Positions 76-37,916 of a stretch of 64,000 nucleotides of DNA are shown here, one piece after another; the stretch's first letter is position 1; each line of letters opens with the position of its first letter. The notes under the pieces were generated by a model. The model searched no databases. It saw only the letters and a list, made by a program, of their open reading frames with translations, and had not been told where the DNA came from. A program made the position numbers and the translations under genes. Origin of the DNA: Methanobacteriota archaeon (GTDB lineage: Archaea; JAADCQ01; Methanopyri; Methanopyrales; Methanopyraceae); contig JAMOPO010000027.1 of NCBI GenBank assembly GCA_027064425.1, positions 64,001 to 128,000 on the forward strand, written 5' to 3'.

Positions 76-777
76 TTGGGCGACCCTTTGGTGGAGATCG
101 TCGGGGAGATTCGCCGTGATCTGGGCTTTAAGGAGTCCGAGGATCGGCTGGCCGCGGCGCTGATGTGCGAGCTGTTGTCGGGTCGGGGACTGGATCTGAG
201 GGACGTCCCGGTCGCCCGGGAGGTGGTCGTGGTCGGGGCCGGACCGTCCGTCCGCAGGCTGCCGGAGGTTCGAGAGGAGCTTGAGGACCGGGTCGTTTAC
301 GCCGCGGACGGCGCGTGTGAGGCGCTGCTCCGGGCGGGCATCGTCCCGGACGTGGTGGTCACGGACCTAGACGGCCGGGTGGAGTTCCTGCTGATGGCCG
401 TGCGGGCGGGCGCGGTACCCGTCGTGCACGCGCACGGGGACAACGTGGACCGGCTGGCGCGGTGGGTCCCGGTGCTGGCGGATGAGGGAGTGCTCGGGAC
501 CTGCCAGGTGGACCCGCCGTGCCCGGAGCTCGTGAATCCGGGCGGGTTCACGGACGGGGATCGCGCGGTGGTGCTGGCGGCCAGGCGCGGGGCGCGCCGG
601 GTTCTAACCGTGGGGATGGACTTCGGGGAGCTGACGACGGAGTTCTCCAGGCCGGGTGAGGGGCGCGGCGTGTTCCGGGCGGACCCCGTCAAGCGAAGGA
701 AGCTGGAGTGGGGGGAGCGGATCGTGCGGATGGTCCGGGAGCACCTAGGGGTGGAGATCGTCCCGATGGTGGAGTAG
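76..777 (+). CDS. mptE: 6-hydroxymethyl-7,8-dihydropterin pyrophosphokinase (DUF115 family)
   Basis: VVGAGPS, AADGA, VTDLDG, VHAHGDN and GGFTDGDRAV motifs. Confidence 0.85.
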   Translation: MGDPLVEIVGEIRRDLGFKESEDRLAAALMCELLSGRGLDLRDVPVAREVVVVGAGPSVRRLPEVREELEDRVVYAADGACEALLRAGIVPDVVVTDLDGRVEFLLMAVRAGAVPVVHAHGDNVDRLARWVPVLADEGVLGTCQVDPPCPELVNPGGFTDGDRAVVLAARRGARRVLTVGMDFGELTTEFSRPGEGRGVFRADPVKRRKLEWGERIVRMVREHLGVEIVPMVE

Positions 778-834
778 GGGCTCGGCCTCGTGCCGTGTCA
801 TCACCGGTCAGCAGGGGCGCCGGGTCACCTCATC
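778..834 (-). ncRNA. C/D box sRNA candidate overlapping cobB stop codon
   Basis: Minus strand: degenerate C GAGGTGA (831-825), 13-nt guide, D' CTGA (811-808), C' GTGATGA (804-798), guide CACGGCACGAGG, D CCGA (785-782); guide complementary to conserved archaeal 16S CUCGUGCCGUG. Confidence 0.7.
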
Positions 835-1580
835 GCACGGATCTCTTCCCACAGCCTGCGCATCGCCGGCGCGGCGCGCTCGCGGATGCACACGTGCATG
901 TGGTGGGACAGCTGGGTCTCGGAGGGGTTGATCTCGATCAGCCTGGCCCCGTGCTGCCGGGCGATCACGGGCAGGTCGGCGGCGGGCCGAACCTCCCCGG
1001 AGGTGCCGATCACGAGCATCACGTCGCAACCTCGAGCCAGCTCCTCAGCCTCGACGAGGGCGTCCGGTGGGAGGGGCTCGCCGAACCAGACGACCCCGGG
1101 CCGCAGCAGCTCGCCGCACTCGGGGCACCGGGGAGGGAGCTCGTCGTACTCGAGCCCCTCTCCACGTTCCGGGTCGTTCATCCGCTCGTAGTCGCAGTCG
1201 ATGCACTCATCGCGCCAGATGTTCCCGTGCAGCTCGATGACGCGCTCGGAGCCGGCGCGCTGGTGCAGCCCGTCAACGTTCTGGGTGATCACGGCCTCCA
1301 GAAGGCCTTCCTCTTCCATCCTAGCGAGGATCCGGTGCGCGTCATTGGGCTCCGCCTCGGCGATCTTCTTCCGGCGCCAGAGGTACCATTTCCAAACTTT
1401 CTCGGGATCCTTGGCGAACGCCTCCGGGGTGGCGAGCTCGCGGGGATCGTAGCGGTTCCAGAGCCCGTCCTTGCCGCGGAAGGTGGGGATGCCGGAGTCG
1501 GCGGAGGCCCCGGCTCCGGTCAGGGCGACGACGGTCTCGGCGTCCAGGATGAGCTCCGCGGCGCGCTCCAGCTCACTCAT
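825..1580 (-). CDS. cobB: NAD-dependent protein deacylase, Sir2 family
   Basis: [29 protein letters not shown], Zn-binding CxxC pairs, [14 protein letters not shown]. Confidence 0.95.
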
Positions 1581-3096
1581 TTTGCTCCTTCCTCCGCTGC
1601 TTCTTCCACTCCTCCAGCGGGACGCCGAACTTCCGCTCGACCTCCTCCCGGTGGATGGTGTTGTAGGCGCAGAACGGGATGATCCGGCCGTCCGGGGTGG
1701 CGTAGTGGATCACGCAGCGCCGCACCCGGTCGACCTGGAAGTTGTACGGGTCCATGAAGTGCATGCAACCGAGTAGGAACGCGTTCCAGTGGTACTCGGA
1801 GAGGGCGTCGTACGTTCCCTTGGTGACCACGTCCACGACCAGACGCGCCAGGCGCTTCTTGCCGGTGATTCCCTTGAAGATCCGGCGGAGGTTCTTGGCG
1901 ATGATCCAGGTTGCCTTGGCCTTGTCCCGCGTCCGCTCCAGGCTGCCAATCTTCCTTGCGACCTTCTCGAGCGTGTCGAGGAAGGCGTCCGGGTCGACGT
2001 AGTCGGTGATCGGCCGGTACCAGTCGTCCTCCTCGATGAGGTAAGTGGCGACGCCGCAGATTGGGTGGGCGGAGAACTCGGGCTTGGGCTCACCGTGCAG
2101 GCGGCCGATCAGGTGCGCGATCTTGGCGGCGACGGGGACGGGGTAGAAGCTGTCGGCGGGGATCCTGCCATCGGTCTGCTCCTCGACGAGCTTGACGAAG
2201 TCTGGGATGGTGATCCGCATCCGCTCGCGCTCCTCTTTCGGCGTCCGGCCGGTGAAGGAGATGGGCTGAACGTTGATCCCGCGGATGACCTCGTACTCGC
2301 GGGCGAAGTCGAGCATGGGTCGGATCTGGTCGTCGTTCACGCCGCGGGCGAGGGTGGGGACGAGGACGGTGGAGAGCCCCACGCGCTCGAGAACCTTGAT
2401 CGCCTCCTTCTTGAGCTCCAGGACCTTCCGGCTGCCGCGCACCTCCTCGTAGATCTCGGGCTTGAGCCCGTCGAACTGCAGGTACACGACGTTGAGCCCG
2501 GCCTCGTGCAGGTCCTCGGCGAGCTCGGGGTTGCGCGCGAACTCGATCCCGTTGGTCGCGATCTGGACGTGGAAGCCGCGCTCGTCGGCCGCCGCGATGA
2601 TCTCGTGGATGTCGTCTCGAACGAGCGGCTCGCCGCCCGCAAACTGGACGGCCGGGGTCTTCACGGGGCGCTCGGAGCGGAGCAGGTCGAGCATCTCCTC
2701 GATCTGCTCGAGGCTGGGCTCGTAAACGTACCCCTTCGCCTCGGCGTTGGCGAAGCAGACCGGACAGTTCAGGTTGCAGCGGTTGGTCACGTCGATGATG
2801 CCGAGGGCGGTCGTGCTGAGGTGACGGTCGCAGAGGCCGCAGCTGCGGGGACAGCCCTCGGAGCACTCCGTCTGCGGGTTCTCGATCCCGGGCCCCTTAT
2901 GCTCGTACTTCATGGCGCGCTCGAACATCTCCACGTCGGACCACACCACCTCCCGGAACTCGCCGTGCTCGGGGCACTTCTTAACTATCTCAACCTCACC
3001 GTTCCCGGTGCGCACCAGCCGGGCCGGAACGATTTCAAGGCACTCCGGGCAGAGGCTCTCGGTCTCGTACAGCACCTCGTTATTCTCGGTGGTCAC
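1573..3096 (-). CDS. tes: Tetraether lipid synthase (radical SAM, MJ0619/GDGT-MAS family)
   Basis: N-terminal [28 protein letters not shown] radical SAM motif, C-terminal [34 protein letters not shown]; start placed at GTG 3096 after GGGGGTG RBS. Confidence 0.88.
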
Positions 3097-4185: not shown

Positions 4186-5514
4186 CGGGGCCCGGGAGCA
4201 CGCGATCGCGGAGGCGCTGTGCGGGGCCCCGGACGAGGACGTGGAGTTGTACGCGTTCATGGGGAACCGTAACCCTGGGCTGATCCGCCTCTCCGAGGAC
4301 TACGAGGTGGGTGACCCGACGGACGTCGACGCGGTGGCCAAGGCGGCGGCTAGGTGGGACGTCGACCTGGCGGTGGTCGGCCCCGAGGACCCGCTGGCCG
4401 AGGGCGTCGCCGACCGCCTGGAGGAGGAGGGCGTCCCGACGTTCGGTCCCAAGCGCGACCCGGCGCGGATCGAGTGGGACAAGGGTTTCGCGCGCCGGCT
4501 GATGAAGAAGTACGGGATCGAGGGTTACCCGGAGTTCGGGGTGTTTGAGGACCCGGACGAGGCCTGCGACTTCATCGACGAGCTGGGCAAGCCGGTGGCT
4601 GTGAAGCCGGCCGGCCTCACGGGCGGTAAGGGCGTCAAGGTGGTGGGTGATCAGCTGAAAAACCTGGAGGAGGCGAAGGAGTACGTCCGCGAGATCTTCG
4701 AGAAAGAGATCGGCGGCATCCCGAAGGTGGTGATCGAGGAGCGGTGCGTGGGCGAGGAGTACACCATCCAGGTGTACACGGACGGTCGGAAGGTGCTCCC
4801 GACGCCCGCCGTGCAGGACCATCCGCACGCCTACGAGGGGGATGAGGGGCCGATCACCGGAGGTATGGGCTCGTACTCCTGCCCGGATGGACTGTTACCG
4901 TTCCTGTCGAGGAAGGAGTACAAGGAGTCCATCCGCATCCTGGAGGAGGCCGTCGAGGCGATTCGGAAGGAGACGGGCGAGCCGTATCGGGGCGTCCTTT
5001 ACGGTCAGTTCATGCTGACGGCGGACGGGCCGGTGCTGATCGAGTTCAACTGCCGGTACGGAGACCCGGAGGCGATGAACATCCTGCCGATCGCGGAGGG
5101 CGACCTGGTCACCCTGCACGCCTCGATCGCGGAGGGCTCGATGGAGGGCGACGTCGAGTTCCTGGAGCGTGCCACGGTGTGCAAGTACGTGGTGCCGGAG
5201 GGCTACCCGGAGTCCTCGGAGGGTGAGGGCGAGCCGATCGAGGTGGACGAGGAGTGCATCCACCGGCTCGACGCCATCCCGTACTACGCGTCCGTGAACC
5301 TGGAGGAGGACGGCACGATCACGATGACCTCCTCGCGGGCGGTCGCGATCGTGGGTATCGGGGAGCGGCTGGAGGAGGCCGAGGAGGCCGCGGAGCGTGC
5401 GATCCGCGAGTGCGTGAGCGGTGAGAAGATCAGGCACCGGTCGGACATCGGCAAGCCCGAGACGGTAAGAGAGAAGGTCCGCCGGATGGAGCGGATCCGG
5501 GGGCGGGGCGGGTC

Positions 5515-5518
<4 letters not shown>
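4163..5518 (+). CDS. purD: Phosphoribosylamine--glycine ligase
   Basis: GSGAREHA, VGPEDPL, GKGVKV, GPITGGMGSY, EFNCRYGDPE. Confidence 0.96.
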
Positions 5519-7415
<1,897 letters not shown>

Positions 7416-32014: not shown

Positions 32015-32967
32015 ACGACCCACTCCCGAGGCAGGTTGGTGAGCACCTCGCACCCGTCCCTTCGAACGACCGCCATCTCCTCCACCCGAACCCCGAACCG
32101 CTCGGAGTACAGGGCCGGCTCGACGGTTATTACGGCCCCTTCCGGCAGCTCGCCGGTCAGCCTACCCTCGTGAACGGCTACCCCGACGTGGTGGCCGAGA
32201 CTGTGCGGGAACTCGAAGTCCTGGAACTCGTCCTCCATCTCCTTCCGGACACGCTCCTCGATCTCTTTGGGGTTCACCCCGGCCTTGAGCTCGTCCAGGG
32301 CTTCCTCCAGGGCCTCACAGACGGTCTCGAGCACCGGGACCGCGTCGCCGTCCCGCGCGCATACGGTCCGGGTGACGTCCGTGCAGTAAACGCACTTCAA
32401 GCCGAAATCGACTAGCATCACGTGGTCCCACTCCCTCCGGCGAGGGTCGGGGTGATGGTGGGGGACGCCGGCCCCCTCGTCGTAGCCGACGATGGGATCG
32501 AAGGCGGGCTTGGCGCCGATCTCAACGGAGGTCCTCGCAAGCTCGCCGGCCACCTCACTCTCGCTCCGGCCCTCCGCGGGTATGAGGGATCTCATGACGT
32601 CCTCGGTGATCCTCACCAGCTCCTGGATCACCTCCACCTCCTCTTTCGTTTTGGAGAGCTTAACGTTCTGGACCCGGTCCGACACCTTCAGCCGGTAGCA
32701 CGGCACGTGCTTGGGGGCCCGGTCGGAGTCGCTCACCCGCGCCGGCCTCAGGTCGCCGGCCCGGTCACGCTCGACTACCTCAACCTCCTCCGGCACGGGC
32801 CACTCACGGACGGCGCTGAGGTCCATTTTCGGGACGACGAGGACGTACTCTTCCGCCTCGAAGTCGGCGTAAAACGCCAGGCCGGGGAAGTGGGCCGCCC
32901 ACTCCACGCTGTCGCGCCGGACCAGCGCGCACCGCTCGCCGTTGCAGGCCTCCTCAAGCCTCCTCAT
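32011..32967 (-). CDS. Xaa-Pro aminopeptidase (M24)
   Basis: PHH, VDFG..YCTDVTRT, HSLGHHVG..VHE, TVEP, GVRVEE; start uncertain (32967 or 33051). Confidence 0.88.
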   Translation of the reverse strand: MRRLEEACNGERCALVRRDSVEWAAHFPGLAFYADFEAEEYVLVVPKMDLSAVREWPVPEEVEVVERDRAGDLRPARVSDSDRAPKHVPCYRLKVSDRVQNVKLSKTKEEVEVIQELVRITEDVMRSLIPAEGRSESEVAGELARTSVEIGAKPAFDPIVGYDEGAGVPHHHPDPRRREWDHVMLVDFGLKCVYCTDVTRTVCARDGDAVPVLETVCEALEEALDELKAGVNPKEIEERVRKEMEDEFQDFEFPHSLGHHVGVAVHEGRLTGELPEGAVITVEPALYSERFGVRVEEMAVVRRDGCEVLTNLPREWVV

Positions 32968-33904
32968 CTTCGCCCGGAATAATCTCCTCCGGCTCAGCCT
33001 CTCCTTCACCTTCTCCAACCTCTTCCTCAGCCTCCGCTTCCTCTCCTCCATCCTCCCCAGCGCCCTCGTCCCGCCTCGAGAGCTCCATCGTGGACTTGTA
33101 AATCCGAAGAACCTCGAGCGCGTCCTCTCGGGACGGGGCGGCCATCCTACGCTTTCCCACGACCACCTCGATGCCGATGGTCTCGCCGATCTCCTCCACC
33201 ACCTCCGGCTCCAGGTCGCCGGGGGACAGCCCGACCTCTCGGCAGAGGTCCTCGAGCTCCATTGGAACCAGCAGGTCCTCGCGGTCCTTGAGCTTCTCTC
33301 GGAGGCGCTCCACCTCGTCCCGCAGACGCTCGACCTCCTCCTCTAACCGCTCCTTCTCCTCCTCCAGCTCACGGCGCTCCTCCGACACCTCCTCGAGCTC
33401 TTCCCGGAGCTCCTCGAGCTCCTCCTCTTTCTCCTCCAGGCTCTCCTCCAGCTCCTCGAGCTCCTCCACGCGCTCGCGGAGCTCCTCCAGCTCCTCGCGC
33501 ATTTTCTTGAGCTTAACCAGGCCCTTGAGCCCGGCCCGGATGAGGGCGTTGCGGAGCTCCTTCTCCACGATGTCCAGGTTGACGTGCTCCACGTCGTGAC
33601 CGATTGGCATCTTCACCCGCTCGACGTGCCCGACGAGGTCCTTGAGCTCCTCCTTGAACTCGCTGGCCAGCTTCCTTCCCGGCTTGTCGGCGTCGGTGGC
33701 GATGAGGACCACGTCGGCGCCGTCGGCCGCGCGGCGGGCGATGTGAGGGTGCGTGGTGGGGATGATGGAGGTGATGGTGACGTTGAACTCGCCGCCGAGG
33801 GCCATGCGCTGGAGGACCTTGGAGACTACCTCCGCGTCGGCGGCCCCCTCGACGATCACTCGCACGTCGACGGGCGATCGCTTCCGCTCGCGCTTAGGTG
33901 GCAT
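32954..33904 (-). CDS. TOPRIM-domain protein with long acidic coiled coil (COG4026-like)
   Basis: VDVRVIVEGAAD, IATDADKPG, GHDVE, EL-rich heptad stretch. Confidence 0.82.
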   Translation of the reverse strand: MPPKRERKRSPVDVRVIVEGAADAEVVSKVLQRMALGGEFNVTITSIIPTTHPHIARRAADGADVVLIATDADKPGRKLASEFKEELKDLVGHVERVKMPIGHDVEHVNLDIVEKELRNALIRAGLKGLVKLKKMREELEELRERVEELEELEESLEEKEEELEELREELEEVSEERRELEEEKERLEEEVERLRDEVERLREKLKDREDLLVPMELEDLCREVGLSPGDLEPEVVEEIGETIGIEVVVGKRRMAAPSREDALEVLRIYKSTMELSRRDEGAGEDGGEEAEAEEEVGEGEGEAEPEEIIPGEDEEA

Positions 33905-34394: not shown

Positions 34395-34901
34395 ATGAAG
34401 GTTTCTCGGAGGCATCCGGTGTCGGAGAAGGAGTTGATGAAGGTGTTGGACAGCGTTAGGGAGGCGGTTGGAGTCGATCTCGAGGGGCCGCTGGAGGGGG
34501 AGGACATCGTCGAGCTGGGGCACGTCAAGGAGTCGGACGTAGAGCGGATAATCATCGCGAAGGGTAAGGTAATGGCGTTCGAGATCGAGGGGCTGTGGCT
34601 GCCGACCCTCCACCCGCTCCTAGAGATGGAGCCCGAGGATGTCGGGCACGCGGTGCTTGTGGACATGGGGGCGGTGAAGCCGATCGCCTCGGGCGCGGAC
34701 GTCATGGTGCCCGGGATCGTGGAGGTTCGCGGGGAGTTCGAGGAAGGGGACGGCGTGGTCGTCATGGACGAGCGGAACCAGCGGCCGTTGGCGGTGGGCA
34801 TCGCCCGGTTCGGGGCGTCAGAAATCGAGGAGAGGGATCGAGGACGGGCGATCAAGAACGTGCATCACGTCGGGGACGATCTCTGGGAGGCGCGGTTCTA
34901 G
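34395..34901 (+). CDS. PUA-domain RNA-binding protein (MCT-1/DUF1947-like)
   Basis: LPTL, VDMGAVKPIASGADVMVPGI, GRAIKNVHHVGDDLW. Confidence 0.9.
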   Translation: MKVSRRHPVSEKELMKVLDSVREAVGVDLEGPLEGEDIVELGHVKESDVERIIIAKGKVMAFEIEGLWLPTLHPLLEMEPEDVGHAVLVDMGAVKPIASGADVMVPGIVEVRGEFEEGDGVVVMDERNQRPLAVGIARFGASEIEERDRGRAIKNVHHVGDDLWEARF

Positions 34902-34902
34902 C

Positions 34903-35706
34903 TCACCGCTTACCGAACAGTCCCTTGATGATCCTGGACAGGATGCCCTCCTTGTCCGGGACCTCGATCTCGTACTCGATGCCGAGCAGCTCCGCGGCCA
35001 GCTTCTTGAACGCCTGAGCGGCCGCCGACTTGGGGCTGCGCACCACCACCGGCTCGCCGAACGCCGCGGCGCGGCGCACCTCGGGGTCCTCGGGGATCTC
35101 GGCCAGGACCTTGGTCTCGAGGATCTTCTCGATCTCTTCTTTCGTGAGCTCGGTCTTGTCCTTGGTCACCCGGTTAACGGCGGTTCCGGTGACCTCCGTT
35201 CCGACCCGCTCGGCGACCGCCTTGACCTTGAGCGCGTCGGTGATCGAGGCGATCTCGGGGTTAACGACCAGCAGGCACTCGGTCGAGGCTGAGAGGGCTG
35301 TCAGGGCGTCGCGGCCCAGCCCCGCCGGACCGTCGATGAGCAGGAAGTCGGCCTGGTCGACGATCCACTCCACCACGTCCCGGAGCCGCTCCGGGTTGGC
35401 CTTCCGGATGCCCTCCAGCGAGATCCCGGCCGGAACAACTTTCACGCCTTTGGGACCCTCATACACGGCCTCCTCGACCTCGGCCTCGCCGGCCAGCACG
35501 TCGTGCAGGGTCACGGGCGCGTCCTCCATCTGAAGAATCAGACCCAGGTTGGCCATGGCGATGTCCGCGTCCAGGATGAACACCTCCCCATCCATATCCG
35601 CGAGCGCGGTGCCCAGGTTGGCGGTCACGGTCGTCTTGCCGGTTCCGCCCTTACCCGACGCGATGCAGATGACCCTGCAGCCCTCCCTTTCCTCGGACTC
35701 AGCCAA
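34903..35706 (-). CDS. minD: MinD-family ATPase with C-terminal amphipathic membrane-targeting helix
   Basis: [35 protein letters not shown], tail [14 protein letters not shown]. Confidence 0.93.
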
Positions 35707-35711
35707 GCTCG

Positions 35712-36590
35712 CTACCCCTCCTCTGAGGGCTTAGCCTTGGACTTGGAAGCTGACGTCTCGGCGGTGAGGTCGATGAGACCCTCCAGGCTGGACGCGAGGG
35801 ACTTGGCAACTTTTTCACACTCTTCGTCAACCTCCTCCAAGTCTGACTCGACGACGAAGGCGACTAAGACATCCTTATAGGGTTTTACCGCCAGAGTTTC
35901 CCCGGAATCGGTCGTGAGCTTTACCCACTCCAGTTCCCCTACCAAGTGCTCGTCCAAGAAGTCCGCCAACCTGCTGACCTCAGCGGCGATTCGGTCCGGA
36001 TTGGATACTCCAGACGAGGCGACCACGAGTCCCTGCCTGTCGGTCACCACGTACGGGGTGTCCGTCTCCTCGGTCGAGGCCGGGAGACTCGCGGACTCTA
36101 TCACCATGCTGAGGTCGTTCCTTAACATGAATATGTCCGCATCCGAGGGCGTTGTCTTGGTCTCGCAGATCGCAATGCTGTCGTTGATCTTGACCGCTAG
36201 GTAATTCGGTCCCTCGCTCTCGGACGACACGATGATCGTGTCCGCGGTCTCAGCGGCCTCGAACACGCTCCTAAGCGCCTCGATGAGCTCGGTCTCGAAC
36301 GACCCACCACCGGACATCCCGATGGGCTTCCCGTCCCTGTCGATGACCACCATCCGCTCGAACCCGAAGTACTCCCTGAGCTCGCTGAGCGCCTTGGACA
36401 TGTCGCGCTTGGCCGTCTCCACCAGCTCGTCCGGCTCCAGCTGCTTAGACGCTATCTGGAGGGCGCGCTGGAGTGCCTCCTCCCTGACCTCCCGAGCCTC
36501 TTCCTCTGGGAGCCTCTCCTCAGTACCCTCCTCCCCTCTCCTGAAGAGCCGCTTGAACTTACCCACTATGCGAGCCACGATGTTCAGCAC
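35712..36590 (-). CDS. Hypothetical protein with N-terminal amphipathic helix and two roadblock-like repeats
   Basis: [19 protein letters not shown]; repeats [12 protein letters not shown] and [13 protein letters not shown] resemble the roadblock (LV)VSSDGLIIA strand-turn. Confidence 0.65.
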
Positions 36591-36593
36591 CCT

Positions 36594-36641
36594 AAAACCT
36601 CCTCCGAGTCGTTTGAAGGGATTTGGAGGGAGGAGGAAAGG
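36594..36641 (-). promoter_or_regulatory. Inverted repeat occluding the RBS of the tandem-roadblock gene
   Basis: mRNA: UAA CCUUUCCUCCUCC..GGAGGAGG UUUUAGG GUG; CCTCCTCC 36598-36605 pairs with GGAGGAGG 36629-36636. Confidence 0.55.
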
Positions 36642-36989
36642 TTATAGCTGCTTGGCGATCTCCTCCGCCGCCTCCTGCGCCCTCAGCCGAATGAGACCCA
36701 GGTTGGCGTCGGGGTCGGTGATTAGGACCAGCGTCGCCTCGTCGCTGATCGCAATGATCATCACTTTACCCTCGGACGACTCGATGAGCATCTGCTCCAG
36801 CTCGCCGAGATCCATCTCGTCGACGACTCGCTCTCCCGAACCGTACACCGTGGTGGCGATGGCTCCCACTACCTCCGAGTCGATGTCCGGCGGCACCGCT
36901 TCGGCGATGATCAGACCGTCGCTCGAGACGACCAGCGAGCCGTGCACACCGTCCACGCGGTTCAGATCCGCCAGCACCTTCTCGATCAA
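36642..36989 (-). CDS. Roadblock/LC7 (MglB-like) protein
   Basis: LNRVDGVHGSLVVSSDGLIIA..VGAIATTVYGSGER..LGELEQMLIESSEGK..NLGLIRL. Confidence 0.93.
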   Translation of the reverse strand: MIEKVLADLNRVDGVHGSLVVSSDGLIIAEAVPPDIDSEVVGAIATTVYGSGERVVDEMDLGELEQMLIESSEGKVMIIAISDEATLVLITDPDANLGLIRLRAQEAAEEIAKQL

Positions 36990-37019
36990 GCCGGACGACC
37001 CCCGGCGCTGAGTGCCGGG

Positions 37020-37046
37020 ACTTAACGCTCAAATAAGGCTTAATTG
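37020..37046. promoter_or_regulatory. AT-rich divergent promoter region
   Basis: CTTAAC / AAATAAGGCTTAATT between divergent operons. Confidence 0.5.
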
Positions 37047-37067
37047 CTTTGGGCCGGGGGGACCGCC

Positions 37068-37916
37068 GTGGGCGCGCTGACGGTGACGATTTCGGCCCTC
37101 TCGACCCTACTGCTCGCGGCCCTCGCCTACACGGTCGGGACGGCGGGCCGAATGCTTGGGTCTCCGGCGGTCGCCATCGGCGGGTCCGCCGCCCTTGGGG
37201 TCGCGGCCGGGGCGTTCCTCATCGTTCCGGCGCTCACGGACCTGCCGGGGGTCGTGGCGGAGTTCTGGAGCGAGCAACCGCTGCTGGCCAAAGTGACCGC
37301 CACCCCCTCCGACCTCCCCTCGGCCCTAAAGGAGCTGCGGAGGCACGGGGCGAGACCGGTCGGGTCCGAAGTGACCGTGGAGCTCACGTTGGGGGAGCCG
37401 GTGGACCCGGAGCGGCAGCGCTGGATCGAGCGGAAAGTTCGGGTCGCGTTCCCCGGGATCGGCAGTGCCCGGTTCGCCTCACCGAGCAAGCTGGTGCTGA
37501 CGCTGGACACCAGGCGGGTTAAACTTGAGGACGTGCCTAAGCTGGTCGACAGGGTTTCGGGGTGGATCACCTACACGAGCGGGTACGTGGTGGTCGGTGC
37601 TTCAGCGACCGTGAAGGTTCGGGCGCGGCGGAGCGCGCTGTCCGACGTGCAGGAGAGGTTCCGTGGCCTGGTCAACGTGAGCGTCCTGTTCGACCCGTCG
37701 CGGGTGGTGAAGCAGAGGGTGGCCCGATGCATCCCGGCCCCGGCCACGGCCCTGGCGACGACGGTGGGCGCGTTCGTGCTGCTGGGGGTCGCCGGGTGGC
37801 ACGGCGCGGTCGGTCGGGTAGTGGGGATTATCAGAAGGAAGGTTAGGGAGCTCGAGATTGAGCGCCGGCGGAGGAGGGTAGTGAGGCTTGGTAAGGCTGG
37901 TGAGGTTCAGCGCTGA
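37068..37916 (+). CDS. Hypothetical membrane protein with extracytoplasmic domain
   Basis: Two N-terminal TMs, soluble middle, C-terminal TM and basic tail; GTG 37068 after GGGGGGA. Confidence 0.6.
   Translation: MGALTVTISALSTLLLAALAYTVGTAGRMLGSPAVAIGGSAALGVAAGAFLIVPALTDLPGVVAEFWSEQPLLAKVTATPSDLPSALKELRRHGARPVGSEVTVELTLGEPVDPERQRWIERKVRVAFPGIGSARFASPSKLVLTLDTRRVKLEDVPKLVDRVSGWITYTSGYVVVGASATVKVRARRSALSDVQERFRGLVNVSVLFDPSRVVKQRVARCIPAPATALATTVGAFVLLGVAGWHGAVGRVVGIIRRKVRELEIERRRRRVVRLGKAGEVQR

Follow-up and report, generated by a model that had tools for sequence, protein, structure and literature searches.

What acts on MinD in archaea? No activating partner of archaeal MinD is described in the available parts of two studies of these proteins (10.1101/2020.04.03.021790; PMC11312570). 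The question is raised again by a locus in a 64,000-nucleotide (nt) stretch of DNA from a Methanobacteriota archaeon of the Methanopyraceae (G000:C27:64001-128000, here termed the window; the genome, G000, is 1.54 Mb in length and is estimated to be 99% complete). The locus is a trio of genes that encode a canonical Roadblock/LC7 protein of 115 amino acids (aa), a 292-aa protein and an archaeal-type MinD ATPase. An original prediction, made from the sequence alone, had proposed that Roadblock proteins form a membrane-tethered scaffold here and regulate MinD rather than a small GTPase. The present analysis leads to a related proposal, to which we give an even chance: that the Roadblock-fold proteins act close to the membrane as direct partners or regulators of MinD. 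The features of the locus, in window positions, are the following.

36642..36989, minus strand: gene 1, canonical Roadblock/LC7 protein, 115 aa (open reading frame (ORF) and Pfam PF03259).
35712..36590, minus strand: gene 2, 292-aa protein with an amphipathic helix, an acidic linker and two predicted Roadblock-fold domains (ORF, GTG start).
36540..36590, minus strand: basic amphipathic helix, residues 1-17 of the 292-aa protein, a candidate membrane-targeting sequence or MinD-contact peptide (helix 2-17 in the model).
36090..36434, minus strand: domain 1 of the 292-aa protein, residues 53-167, predicted Roadblock fold, apparently related to the minD-upstream S family described below (a-bb-a-bbb-a, predicted local distance difference test (pLDDT) 78-88).
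35739..36065, minus strand: domain 2 of the 292-aa protein, residues 176-284, predicted Roadblock fold, nearer to canonical Roadblock (bb-a-bbb-a, pLDDT 68-80).
34903..35706, minus strand: gene 3, archaeal-type MinD ATPase, 267 aa (ORF, TTG start, TIGR01969).
34906..34947, minus strand: C-terminal amphipathic tail of MinD (from sequence).
36598..36605, minus strand: Shine-Dalgarno-like GGAGGAGG, 7 nt 5′ of the gene 2 GTG (read from sequence).
35715..35723, minus strand: GAGGAGGGG within the final codons of gene 2, ahead of the MinD TTG (read from sequence).
37028..37037, minus strand: AT-rich CCTTATTTGA patch, 40-48 nt upstream of the Roadblock start (read from sequence).

The ORF listing bears out the predicted arrangement of three consecutive, co-oriented minus-strand genes, in the order Roadblock, 292-aa gene and minD. 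The intergenic gaps are 51 nt between the Roadblock gene and the 292-aa gene and, as had been noticed, 5 nt between the 292-aa gene and minD (the stop codon of gene 2 ends at 35712 and MinD starts at 35706). In the congener G002 the last two genes are 1 nt apart. The placement of GAGGAGGGG suggests that translation of MinD is coupled to that of gene 2. The CCTTATTTGA sequence is the sole AT-rich patch in a 54-nt divergent intergenic region, in a window with a G+C content of 64-72%, and may be the operon's TATA box. On the minD side the trio is bounded by a convergent gene for a PUA-domain protein, the end of which is 1 nt from the MinD stop; on the other side, a divergent gene for a membrane protein begins 54 nt upstream of the Roadblock gene. 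The short gaps, the ribosome-binding motifs and the convergent and divergent flanking genes make the trio look like one transcription unit. Five DNA sequencing runs, from two studies, contain positions 34800-37100, and no RNA run was listed for them.

The arrangement is conserved within the genus. All six genus genomes have the Roadblock gene, the 292-aa gene and minD side by side in one orientation (G000-G005; by coordinates, with ORF listings for G002, G001 and G004). Over the deepest split in the genus, identity is 79-85% for MinD, 85% for the Roadblock protein and 40-43% for the 292-aa protein. The arrangement is not due to chance, because it has been kept in six of six genomes, including members in which the 292-aa protein has fallen to 40-43% identity.

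The two outer genes of the trio are readily assigned. The 267-aa protein matches NCBIfam TIGR01969 (minD_arch) at 400.1 bits against a cut-off of 201.75, and it is the sole match above cut-off in the genome, the runner-up scoring 62 bits. In an alignment of 30 sequences, the residues of the deviant Walker A motif (S17, G18, K19, G20, G21, G23, K24, T25) and D46, D48 and D125 are invariant; SGKGGTGKT, with its signature lysine, is thus present in all 30 MinD sequences. The C-terminal tail quoted in the original prediction is present, and the consensus C-terminus of the 30 archaeal MinDs is GLFGRR. Membrane targeting by a C-terminal helix is established for MinD-type ATPases, according to the available part of one review of them (PMC11407121). 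By family score, deviant Walker A motif and C-terminal amphipathic helix, all read from the sequence, the protein is assigned to MinD. The 115-aa protein matches Pfam PF03259 (Robl_LC7) over the whole profile (1-91 of 91) at 72 bits (cut-off 23; E 3.5e-20). It is 85% identical to its orthologue in G002, a distant congener, and 48-51% identical to Roadblock genes at five Methanobacteriaceae-type loci (L022, L023, L038, L045 and L046), each of which has a minD cluster near its Roadblock gene. A second, weak Roadblock-like ORF of 129 aa is found elsewhere in the genome (G000:C5:19099-19488, plus strand; 19.2 bits, E 4e-4, with a local Roadblock hidden Markov model (HMM)).

Is the linkage of Roadblock to minD a peculiarity of one genus? 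Coordinates of Robl_LC7, minD_arch and DUF2226 matches were compared in 40 other archaeal genomes, and several places have such matches within 5 kb. The recurrent third neighbour is DUF2226 (PF09987), one copy of which also matches the PATAN-like DUF4388. These loci were chosen for the closeness of their matches and are therefore a biased sample, and two samples blind to the counted feature were then made. The MinD-selected sample comprises 40 loci at the best minD_arch matches of 36 further archaeal genomes, searched with local HMMs. Of the 40 loci, 13 have DUF2226 just upstream of minD in the same orientation, and three have a Roadblock gene within 4.5 kb of minD. The Roadblock-selected sample comprises 54 loci found with the Roadblock alignment, one genome per species. 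Here minD is present in the fetched flank (up to 6 kb) of the Roadblock orthologue in 35 loci; a further seven end before the expected place of minD, and five of these seven show SepF and/or DUF2226 in the expected order.

The lineages that display Roadblock-minD linkage are Methanopyri, Methanobacteriaceae, Methanomicrobiales and Archaeoglobaceae, and DUF2226 usually accompanies the pair. Gene order varies between them. In Methanopyri it is Roadblock, 292-aa gene, minD (three of three loci); in Methanobacteriaceae the Roadblock gene is divergent from SepF, DUF2226, minD and often a second minD; in Methanomicrobiales (five loci) the order is Roadblock, a 618-756-aa protein, a DUF2226-like gene and minD; and in Archaeoglobaceae it is S, a coiled-coil gene, minD, Roadblock and DUF2226. 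Recurrence in several archaeal classes, in different gene orders, points to selection on the linkage. The gene order and the conserved linkage are direct observations, and the synteny survey extends the linkage well beyond the genus; its absence there had been named in advance as a result that would count against the proposal.

Several of the surveyed loci have properties of their own. In the Methanobacteriaceae (L081-L113; for example L022, 8117-11309), SepF, DUF2226 and MinD form a cluster, often with a second MinD paralogue, so that the FtsZ anchor SepF is in one operon with MinD; in L022 a DUF1611 gene lies ahead of SepF and the divergent Roadblock gene is ∼1.2 kb upstream. The long C-terminal region of the Methanobacteriaceae DUF2226 was considered as a hidden S or Roadblock domain and was ruled out (hhalign 0.1-1.4%). 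The 618-756-aa protein of the Methanomicrobiales (L125-L129; for example L125, 4632-6506), situated between a free Roadblock gene and the DUF2226-like gene with minD, has at its N-terminus a PATAN/DUF2226-like part, then a long disordered region rich in proline, and a Roadblock domain at its C-terminus (Pfam, 28.9 bits); it is a fusion that joins DUF2226-type and Roadblock domains. In L026 (G035; 78-3046 and 4190-5623), a KaiC-like ATPase, a MinD paralogue and a type IV pilus/archaellum-type secretion ATPase occur in series, with a V4R protein, a Roadblock gene and a small GTPase of the Arf/Ras type nearby. The DPANN-type loci L032 (113-3375) and L033 (2179-5348), from G017 and G040, carry the string TatD DNase, NYN nuclease, DUF2226, S and MinD; this five-gene string is found in two different families.

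The central gene of the trio is the least familiar. Searches of Pfam and NCBIfam with the 292-aa protein give no match above threshold; below threshold there are Robl_LC7 at 17.1 bits (E 0.0045, residues 68-118) and LAMTOR5 at 13.8 bits (residues 179-244). Its closest relatives among 5.8 billion clusters searched are five proteins of the same genus, at 69-100% identity. Among 1.84 billion representatives, three clusters were found, at 100, 44 and 43% identity, together with one coiled-coil artefact. The gene is present in five of five congeners, and 35 other archaeal genomes gave a single spurious match and no credible one. By full sequence similarity the protein thus appears confined to one genus, and it looks like an orphan because of its rapid divergence.

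Predicted structure gives a different picture. Two AlphaFold2 models were compared, one built on five close sequences (mean pLDDT 58) and one on ten sequences that include the relatives of 40-43% identity (mean pLDDT 67; m9fdd05e4e887). Both agree on the layout: a helix at residues 2-17, a helix at 29-48 within a low-confidence acidic stretch, two domains (residues 53-167 and 180-283) and a disordered tail. When the domains were compared with 48,161 solved chains by VIA-align, the top matches of both were solved Roadblock proteins, matched almost end to end. The best for domain 1 is the Streptomyces Roadblock/LC7 protein 3kye_A (Z 12.3, root-mean-square deviation (rmsd) 2.5 Å, 107 of 120 residues), followed by a Gtr C-terminal domain (Z 11.4), MglB (6hjm_A, Z 11.1) and Asgard Roadblocks (Z 10.9). 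For domain 2 it is the Asgard Roadblock3 9jue_D (Z 12.5, rmsd 2.4 Å, 101 of 120 residues), followed by MP1-p14 (2zl1_B, Z 11.4) and MglB (3t1r_A, Z 11.3). GAF and profilin folds, which are generally similar to that of Roadblock, score Z 9.6-11.9, a small margin below Roadblock. With the first model, Foldseek matched the whole protein to the multi-longin guanine nucleotide exchange factors Mon1-Ccz1, CPLANE and BLOC-3, and the single domains to MglB and MP1/p14. The folds come from models, and on these models the two segments that had been thought to mimic Roadblock are Roadblock-fold domains in fact; the lack of any Roadblock- or profilin-like fold, which would have told against the proposal, was not what was found.

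The term tandem Roadblock needs qualification. It holds for both domains as a fold, but by sequence only domain 2 is detectably like canonical Roadblock. Against an eight-sequence Roadblock profile, domain 2 gives hhalign 82% (E 1e-5, 72 columns) and domain 1 gives 4.8%, in the correct register. A BLASTP comparison of the 115-aa Roadblock with the 292-aa protein aligns 61 residues of domain 2 (E 0.055), and no internal repeat is detected by sequence when domain 1 is compared with domain 2 (hhalign 3.5%). In the ESM Atlas, a Roadblock cluster scores 0.88 and a cluster of Iainarchaeota hypothetical proteins 0.87; both are below the 0.9 level and serve as leads. The possibility that the protein is a divergent DUF2226 (PF09987, PATAN-like) was also considered and was ruled out (hhalign 0.1% against ten DUF2226 proteins; no Pfam match at E<=0.1). 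The genome has two canonical DUF2226 genes elsewhere, unlinked to the trio.

The N-terminus of the 292-aa protein had been described as a basic amphipathic helix patterned like the MinD tail, and hydrophobic moments uphold its amphipathic character in all ten family members. The copy in the window has a hydrophobic moment of 0.94 and a net charge of +4. Across the family the N-terminal hydrophobic moment is 0.77-0.94 (10 of 10 members), and ranks at the 98th-100th percentile when 494 ORFs of at least 150 aa from the surveyed loci are scored at their N-termini. The net charge of the first 22 residues ranges from 0 to +6 and is +2 to +6 in eight of the ten. The pattern is similar to that of the C-terminal tail of MinD. 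The helix could function as a membrane anchor, as a MinD-contact peptide, or as both. The N-terminus of MinE performs both functions, membrane binding and MinD activation.

A family of proteins of ∼150 aa that have no Pfam domain, here called the S family, sheds light on domain 1. S genes lie directly upstream of minD in DPANN genomes and in one Archaeoglobaceae genome. An ORF of 128-168 aa occupies the gap between DUF2226 and minD in 10 of the 13 DUF2226-bearing MinD-selected loci and in two earlier loci; the gap that houses it is 400-730 nt, and the DUF2226 gene in these loci is short. S ORFs start with an amphipathic helix (hydrophobic moment 0.44-0.81; net charge +1 to +7 in 10 of 11 ORFs), continue with a charged helical stretch and end in a domain with the hairpin motif D-G-S-V-I, in which secondary-structure elements follow the rhythm seen in Roadblock. 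For 11 S-family ORFs, no meaningful Pfam match was obtained at E<=1. A profile search brought in 96 proteins, all named ‘hypothetical’ and without Pfam domains; those with named sources are from Micrarchaeota, ‘ainarchaeum’ and unclassified archaea (DPANN). Longer, fused S forms were not found among proteins of 309-2000 aa, the lengths 287-308 aa being outside both S searches.

Two alignments of the S family were used for comparison, A4 (11 well-aligned ORFs) and A5 (63 sequences). The 292-aa family aligns with A4 at hhalign 64% (E 6.6e-5, 103 columns), residues 62-165 on 46-150, and with A5 at 47% (E 1.9e-4). Domain 1 alone gives 70% with A5 (E 4e-5) and domain 2 gives 4%; the matches at 47-70% span 100-104 columns. 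Among 7830 six-frame ORFs of at least 60 aa in the genome, the A5 HMM has a single match, the 292-aa ORF (E 0.0072), and it scores 24.9 bits on the G004 orthologue, with the entire domain aligned (HMM positions 40-148). In the reciprocal direction, against 3139 surveyed ORFs, the sole non-family matches of a domain-1 HMM at E<=1 are three S-family ORFs (E 0.002-0.024); a domain-2 HMM matches one Roadblock and one Roadblock/S-like ORF (E ∼0.01). The S family in turn approaches Roadblock. The whole length of A5 can be aligned with the Roadblock profile (hhalign 36%, E 3.8e-4), seven of 17 weak matches of the S profile among Protein Data Bank sequences are dynein Roadblock light chains (E 0.08-0.4), and one ORF (L027, 2006-2572) bridges the two, with 24.1 bits to Pfam Robl_LC7, above the cut-off, and 31.8 bits to the S HMM.

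The single statistics are modest, and it is the agreement of architecture, position and reciprocal searches that speaks for a match of the 292-aa protein with S. The comparisons are suggestive of orthology between residues 1-170 of the 292-aa protein and the S family, and there is evidence that the S family is a divergent Roadblock. In our reading, fusion of an S protein with a second Roadblock domain, of more canonical type, accounts for the 292-aa protein. On these sequence comparisons, domain 1 and the N-terminal helix appear to be the local form of a widespread unnamed family and not a lone mimic.

If MinD has partners here, they are not the bacterial ones, as far as can be detected. Searches for MinE (PF03776) and MinC (PF03775) gave no match at E<=0.1 in the whole genome, and control genomes were matched. 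A Ras/Arf search of the window gave no match; genome-wide, the highest-scoring match is a 745-aa protein (27.2 bits), followed by a 194-aa HSR1-type GTPase (25.7 and 20.7 bits), and a 222-aa HSR1-type GTPase outside the window also matches Ras/Arf models. As far as these searches reach, there is no clear MglA in the genome, a very divergent MglA being possible. The stated absence of MglA, minC and minE from the window therefore stands, and it extends to the genome within the reach of profile searches. MinD is the sole nearby NTPase in the cluster, and no GTPase gene is found in or beside the trio in any of the six congeners examined.

How might the Roadblock-fold proteins act on MinD? Binding to MinD, tethering to the membrane and an effect on the ATPase are what we infer for them. 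The Roadblock domains would bind one another, the 115-aa Roadblock or both, and so build a dimeric platform comparable with those of MglB, MglC and LAMTOR. The N-terminal helix would keep this platform at the membrane, where ATP-bound MinD dimers would sit by way of their own C-terminal helix. The platform would bind MinD in a manner dependent on nucleotide state, and it would either set the ATPase rate and membrane residence of MinD, as MinE does for MinD and MglB for MglA, or link MinD to a cargo. Of possible cargoes, a machine at the pole or in the envelope (archaella or pili, for instance) would be likelier than the division ring, since the genome has a Dip/Oap operon, described below.

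A direct partnership is favoured because the operons are tight and apparently translationally coupled, because the linkage survives rearrangements in several classes and because MinD is the only NTPase in the cluster. In addition, the fold is established as a dimeric platform able to sense which nucleotide a P-loop switch carries (MglB-MglA, LAMTOR-Rag), and ParA/MinD ATPases are generally contacted by a partner protein through its N-terminal region, a rule set out in the available part of one source (PMC11407121). Profilin-longin-like domains are described in part of another source as often associated with SIMIBI GTPases (10.64898/2026.10.19.760177). A more far-reaching version is possible, and we hold it tentatively: the 115-aa Roadblock, S and DUF2226 may be a dedicated set, an ancient module of three to four components that controls archaeal MinD in Methanopyri, Methanobacteria, Methanomicrobiales, Archaeoglobi and DPANN and supplies the missing MinD activator and adaptor.

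A number of points weigh against a direct partnership. MinD binding is argued from gene neighbourhood, which alone does not establish regulation. (A complex prediction with the 292-aa family and Roadblock alignment, in which monomeric MinD was the scored partner, gave 0.16 against a mark of 0.32 in a run without controls and speaks neither for nor against binding.) DUF2226, S and Roadblock were all undetected by the local HMMs in 26 of the 40 MinD-selected loci (locus L040, where DUF2226 is ∼3 kb away on the other strand, is outside the 26). The Roadblock orthologue also exists without an adjacent MinD, since 12 of the 54 Roadblock loci have no minD in the flank: six Thermococcus-type loci, which carry Roadblock and DUF2226 alone, two from Archaeoglobus, two from other archaea and two from bacteria. 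Approximately 33 of the 54 loci are from Methanobacteriaceae, so that the counts inflate independence; there are about four classes, not 35 independent cases. At L024, an ORF for an MglA-like GTPase separates minD from the Roadblock/DUF2226 genes, and the Roadblock there may serve this GTPase. The link between domain 1 and S, at hhalign 47-70%, comes from very shallow profiles (effective number of sequences (Neff) ∼1.9). Lastly, deletion of Haloferax HVO_0596, a conserved neighbour of MinD2, gave no phenotype according to the available part of the report (PMC11312570), so that co-operonic neighbours of MinD need not matter visibly.

The ORF at L024 (5273-5701, plus strand, G030) is 142 aa in length and contains the G3-G5 part of a small GTPase (TPGQ, NKWD; Ras 27 bits) directly upstream of minD. 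As called, it has no P-loop part, which indicates a wrong start or a disruption.

One alternative keeps the partnership with MinD and assigns the parts differently. The N-terminal helix would be a peptide that contacts MinD and stimulates its ATPase, the Roadblock domains would serve dimerisation and cargo binding, and the 292-aa protein would be an adaptor or cargo protein, not a membrane scaffold. The helix is at the extreme N-terminus, is basic in most 292-aa and S members and precedes a long, flexible acidic linker of low pLDDT, a layout typically seen in tethered activating peptides; comparable N-terminal regions are those of ParB, MinE, McdB and PomX. However, the very high hydrophobic moment in ten of ten members (0.77-0.94) and the likeness to the C-terminal tail of MinD fit a lipid-binding helix at least as well. 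Since the MinE N-terminus does both jobs, the two assignments are compatible, and a peptide in place of an anchor is on balance unlikely.

A second alternative separates the Roadblock proteins from MinD. They would act on a GTPase encoded elsewhere, of the HSR1 type, the OapA/DipA type or another, and MinD would be adjacent by virtue of a common polarity or envelope pathway, with no direct contact. Roadblock/MglB is the established GTPase-activating protein of the small GTPase MglA, and a solved MglA-MglB complex (6izw) is among the Foldseek matches. GTPase genes do occur at related loci: the MglA-like ORF of L024 is clustered with Roadblock, DUF2226 and MinD, and an Arf/Ras-type GTPase is beside the Roadblock gene of L026. 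Thermococcus-type loci retain Roadblock and DUF2226 without an adjacent MinD, and the genome itself encodes two HSR1-type GTPases of small size (194 aa and 222 aa), the larger of which has an amphipathic basic N-terminus. But the 222-aa GTPase is in an operon of its own with OapB and OapC, and its Haloferax counterpart is partnered by DipB. Moreover, none of the six congeners has a GTPase gene in or beside the trio, and S is directly upstream of minD in 10 of 10 DPANN-type loci (the flanks of which were not scanned for GTPases). An action on a distant GTPase is therefore considered doubtful. That the trio is a lineage-specific operon of convenience, in which the 292-aa protein is structural, quick to evolve and without relation to MinD function, would fit the faster evolution of gene 2 than of its neighbours (40-43% against 79-85% identity) and the lack of relatives outside the genus in whole-protein searches, but it is very improbable given the recurrence of Roadblock-fold/minD linkage in several archaeal classes in varied gene orders and the tight gene spacing, which argues for co-translation.

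Direct partnership with MinD leaves the question of what MinD would position. A Dip/Oap operon is present outside the window (G000:C27, ∼141486-142794; L013 852-2160, minus strand) and contains the 222-aa GTPase with a basic amphipathic N-terminus, OapB (PF09846, DUF2073, 102 bits) and OapC (PF09845, 38 bits); it corresponds to DipABC of Haloferax. The trio proteins have no match to the OapA/DipA, OapB or OapC families and are thus not Dip/Oap members. In Haloferax, according to the available parts of the work, Dip is a Min-like oscillator that places the division ring, and DipB is the partner of the DipA GTPase (10.64898/2026.05.19.726155). The four Haloferax MinDs are described, again in partly available sources, as dispensable for division and as positioning archaella and chemotaxis arrays (10.64898/2026.05.19.726155; 10.1101/2020.04.03.021790). 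A role in cell division is not the default for the trio MinD, because the genome has the operon that is the divisome positioner in Haloferax; by this analogy, it is more likely that the trio MinD positions something other than the Z ring. The genome also has SepF (PF04472, 41.6 bits), on another contig. In the region G000:C15:389820-391826, it is situated ∼1.3 kb downstream of the gene for the 194-aa HSR1-type GTPase.

Comparison with known systems shows partial resemblance to several. The MglA-MglB system of Myxococcus and Thermus (with the paralogue MglC) likewise has a Roadblock-fold gene beside a P-loop NTPase, the presumed target of its regulation; the modelled domains 1 and 2 of the 292-aa protein superpose on MglB (Z 11.1 with 6hjm_A and 11.3 with 3t1r_A), and stacked Roadblock-Roadblock assemblies are known (MglB-MglC). 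The NTPase here differs in that it is a SIMIBI MinD-type ATPase that forms an ATP-sandwich dimer and not a TRAFAC small GTPase. No MglA-type gene was found by the genome searches, and one of the Roadblock proteins has an N-terminal amphipathic helix and a tandem domain. The MinCDE system shares a MinD with a C-terminal amphipathic helix and a small co-operonic partner with an N-terminal amphipathic helix, and the logic of ATPase stimulation and membrane release proposed here is the same. It differs in its components, since neither MinE nor MinC is matched here, and the predicted fold of the partner is Roadblock and not that of MinE. In addition, the Haloferax MinDs do not place the division ring, according to the partly available sources. 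On gene content, the trio belongs to neither MglA-MglB (there is no MglA-type gene) nor MinCDE (there is no MinE or MinC match).

Li, Burroughs and Aravind describe, in the available part of their text, ParA domains of the PriB1 clade that replace MglA beside MglB (10.64898/2026.10.19.760177). In those systems, as here, a ParA/MinD-clade ATPase takes the place of the GTPase beside an MglB-like protein; as far as that text goes, they differ in that PriB1 is a ParA-proper clade and the systems described are centred on the Myxococcus-type switch. The trio MinD has the serine before KGG that is given there as the mark of PriB2, a comparison made by motif and not by tree.

The eukaryotic Ragulator-Rag/EGO system also uses several Roadblock domains as a membrane-anchored NTPase platform, the anchoring being a proposal in the present case. 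MP1-p14 (Z 11.1-11.4), the C-terminal domains of Gtr/Rag (Z 10.8-11.4) and Gse1p (Z 10.1) are among the structural matches, which signify fold resemblance alone. Lipidated LAMTOR1/Ego1 is the anchor there, whereas an amphipathic helix would be the anchor here; the clients there are Rag GTPases with Roadblock domains of their own, and here the client would be an ATPase that has no Roadblock domain. Ras/Arf searches found no Rag-type GTPase in the genome.

The Dip/Oap system, as presented in the available parts of its description (10.64898/2026.05.19.726155), is similarly a Min-like system that has no MinE or MinC and consists of an NTPase bound to the membrane by an amphipathic helix and a small releasing partner. 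Its proteins are unrelated, being an HSR1-type GTPase, the SepF-like DUF2073/OapB and a Zn-ribbon protein. As the Dip/Oap operon is separate in the same genome, the trio represents an additional system. The Haloferax volcanii proteins MinD4 and MinD2 are archaeal MinD paralogues that position archaella and chemotaxis arrays, and MinD2 has a conserved small neighbour, HVO_0596; Roadblock is not mentioned in the available parts of those reports.

In the full-text literature searched, DUF2226 is unmentioned, and the PATAN domain and Roadblock appear together only for Myxococcus pili. No description was found of a linkage of Roadblock/MglB to archaeal MinD (the search covered the literature apart from the figures and supplements of 10.64898/2026.10.19.760177), nor, in full text, of the S family, the DUF2226 connection or the Methanopyrus amphipathic-helix fusion. 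Roadblock-like domains that accompany SIMIBI ATPases are already in print; the archaeal MinD linkage, the S family, the connection to DUF2226 and the Methanopyrus fusion are new here.

Two neighbouring genes may be added. The divergent gene upstream of the trio (37044-37916, plus strand) encodes a 290-aa predicted membrane protein that has no Pfam match. It occupies the same divergent place in G002, at 38% identity (E 6e-64), and could be a membrane component of the module. At 32954-33904 (minus strand) is the gene for a 316-aa protein in which a Toprim domain at the N-terminus is followed by a long coiled coil rich in E, R and L and by an acidic tail; its many coiled-coil Pfam matches are compositional.

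Archaeal MinD is widespread, and the trio and its relatives provide concrete, small and soluble candidates for its partners. This is a rare case in which comparative genomics yields a defined biochemical test for an open question, and it offers a first functional context for two unannotated families, DUF2226 and S, the latter with its 96 ‘hypothetical’ proteins. If the proposal of a dedicated module is correct, the Methanobacteriaceae module, being co-operonic with SepF, might touch the division machinery directly. The Roadblock/longin platform serves small GTPases in systems that range from Myxococcus to the lysosomal Ragulator, and would be extended to a MinD-type ATPase; the module would play for this SIMIBI ATPase the part of MglB for MglA and of MinE for bacterial MinD. 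Perhaps, then, the Roadblock platform would have governed both great classes of P-loop switches before its use with Rag and Rab in eukaryotes.

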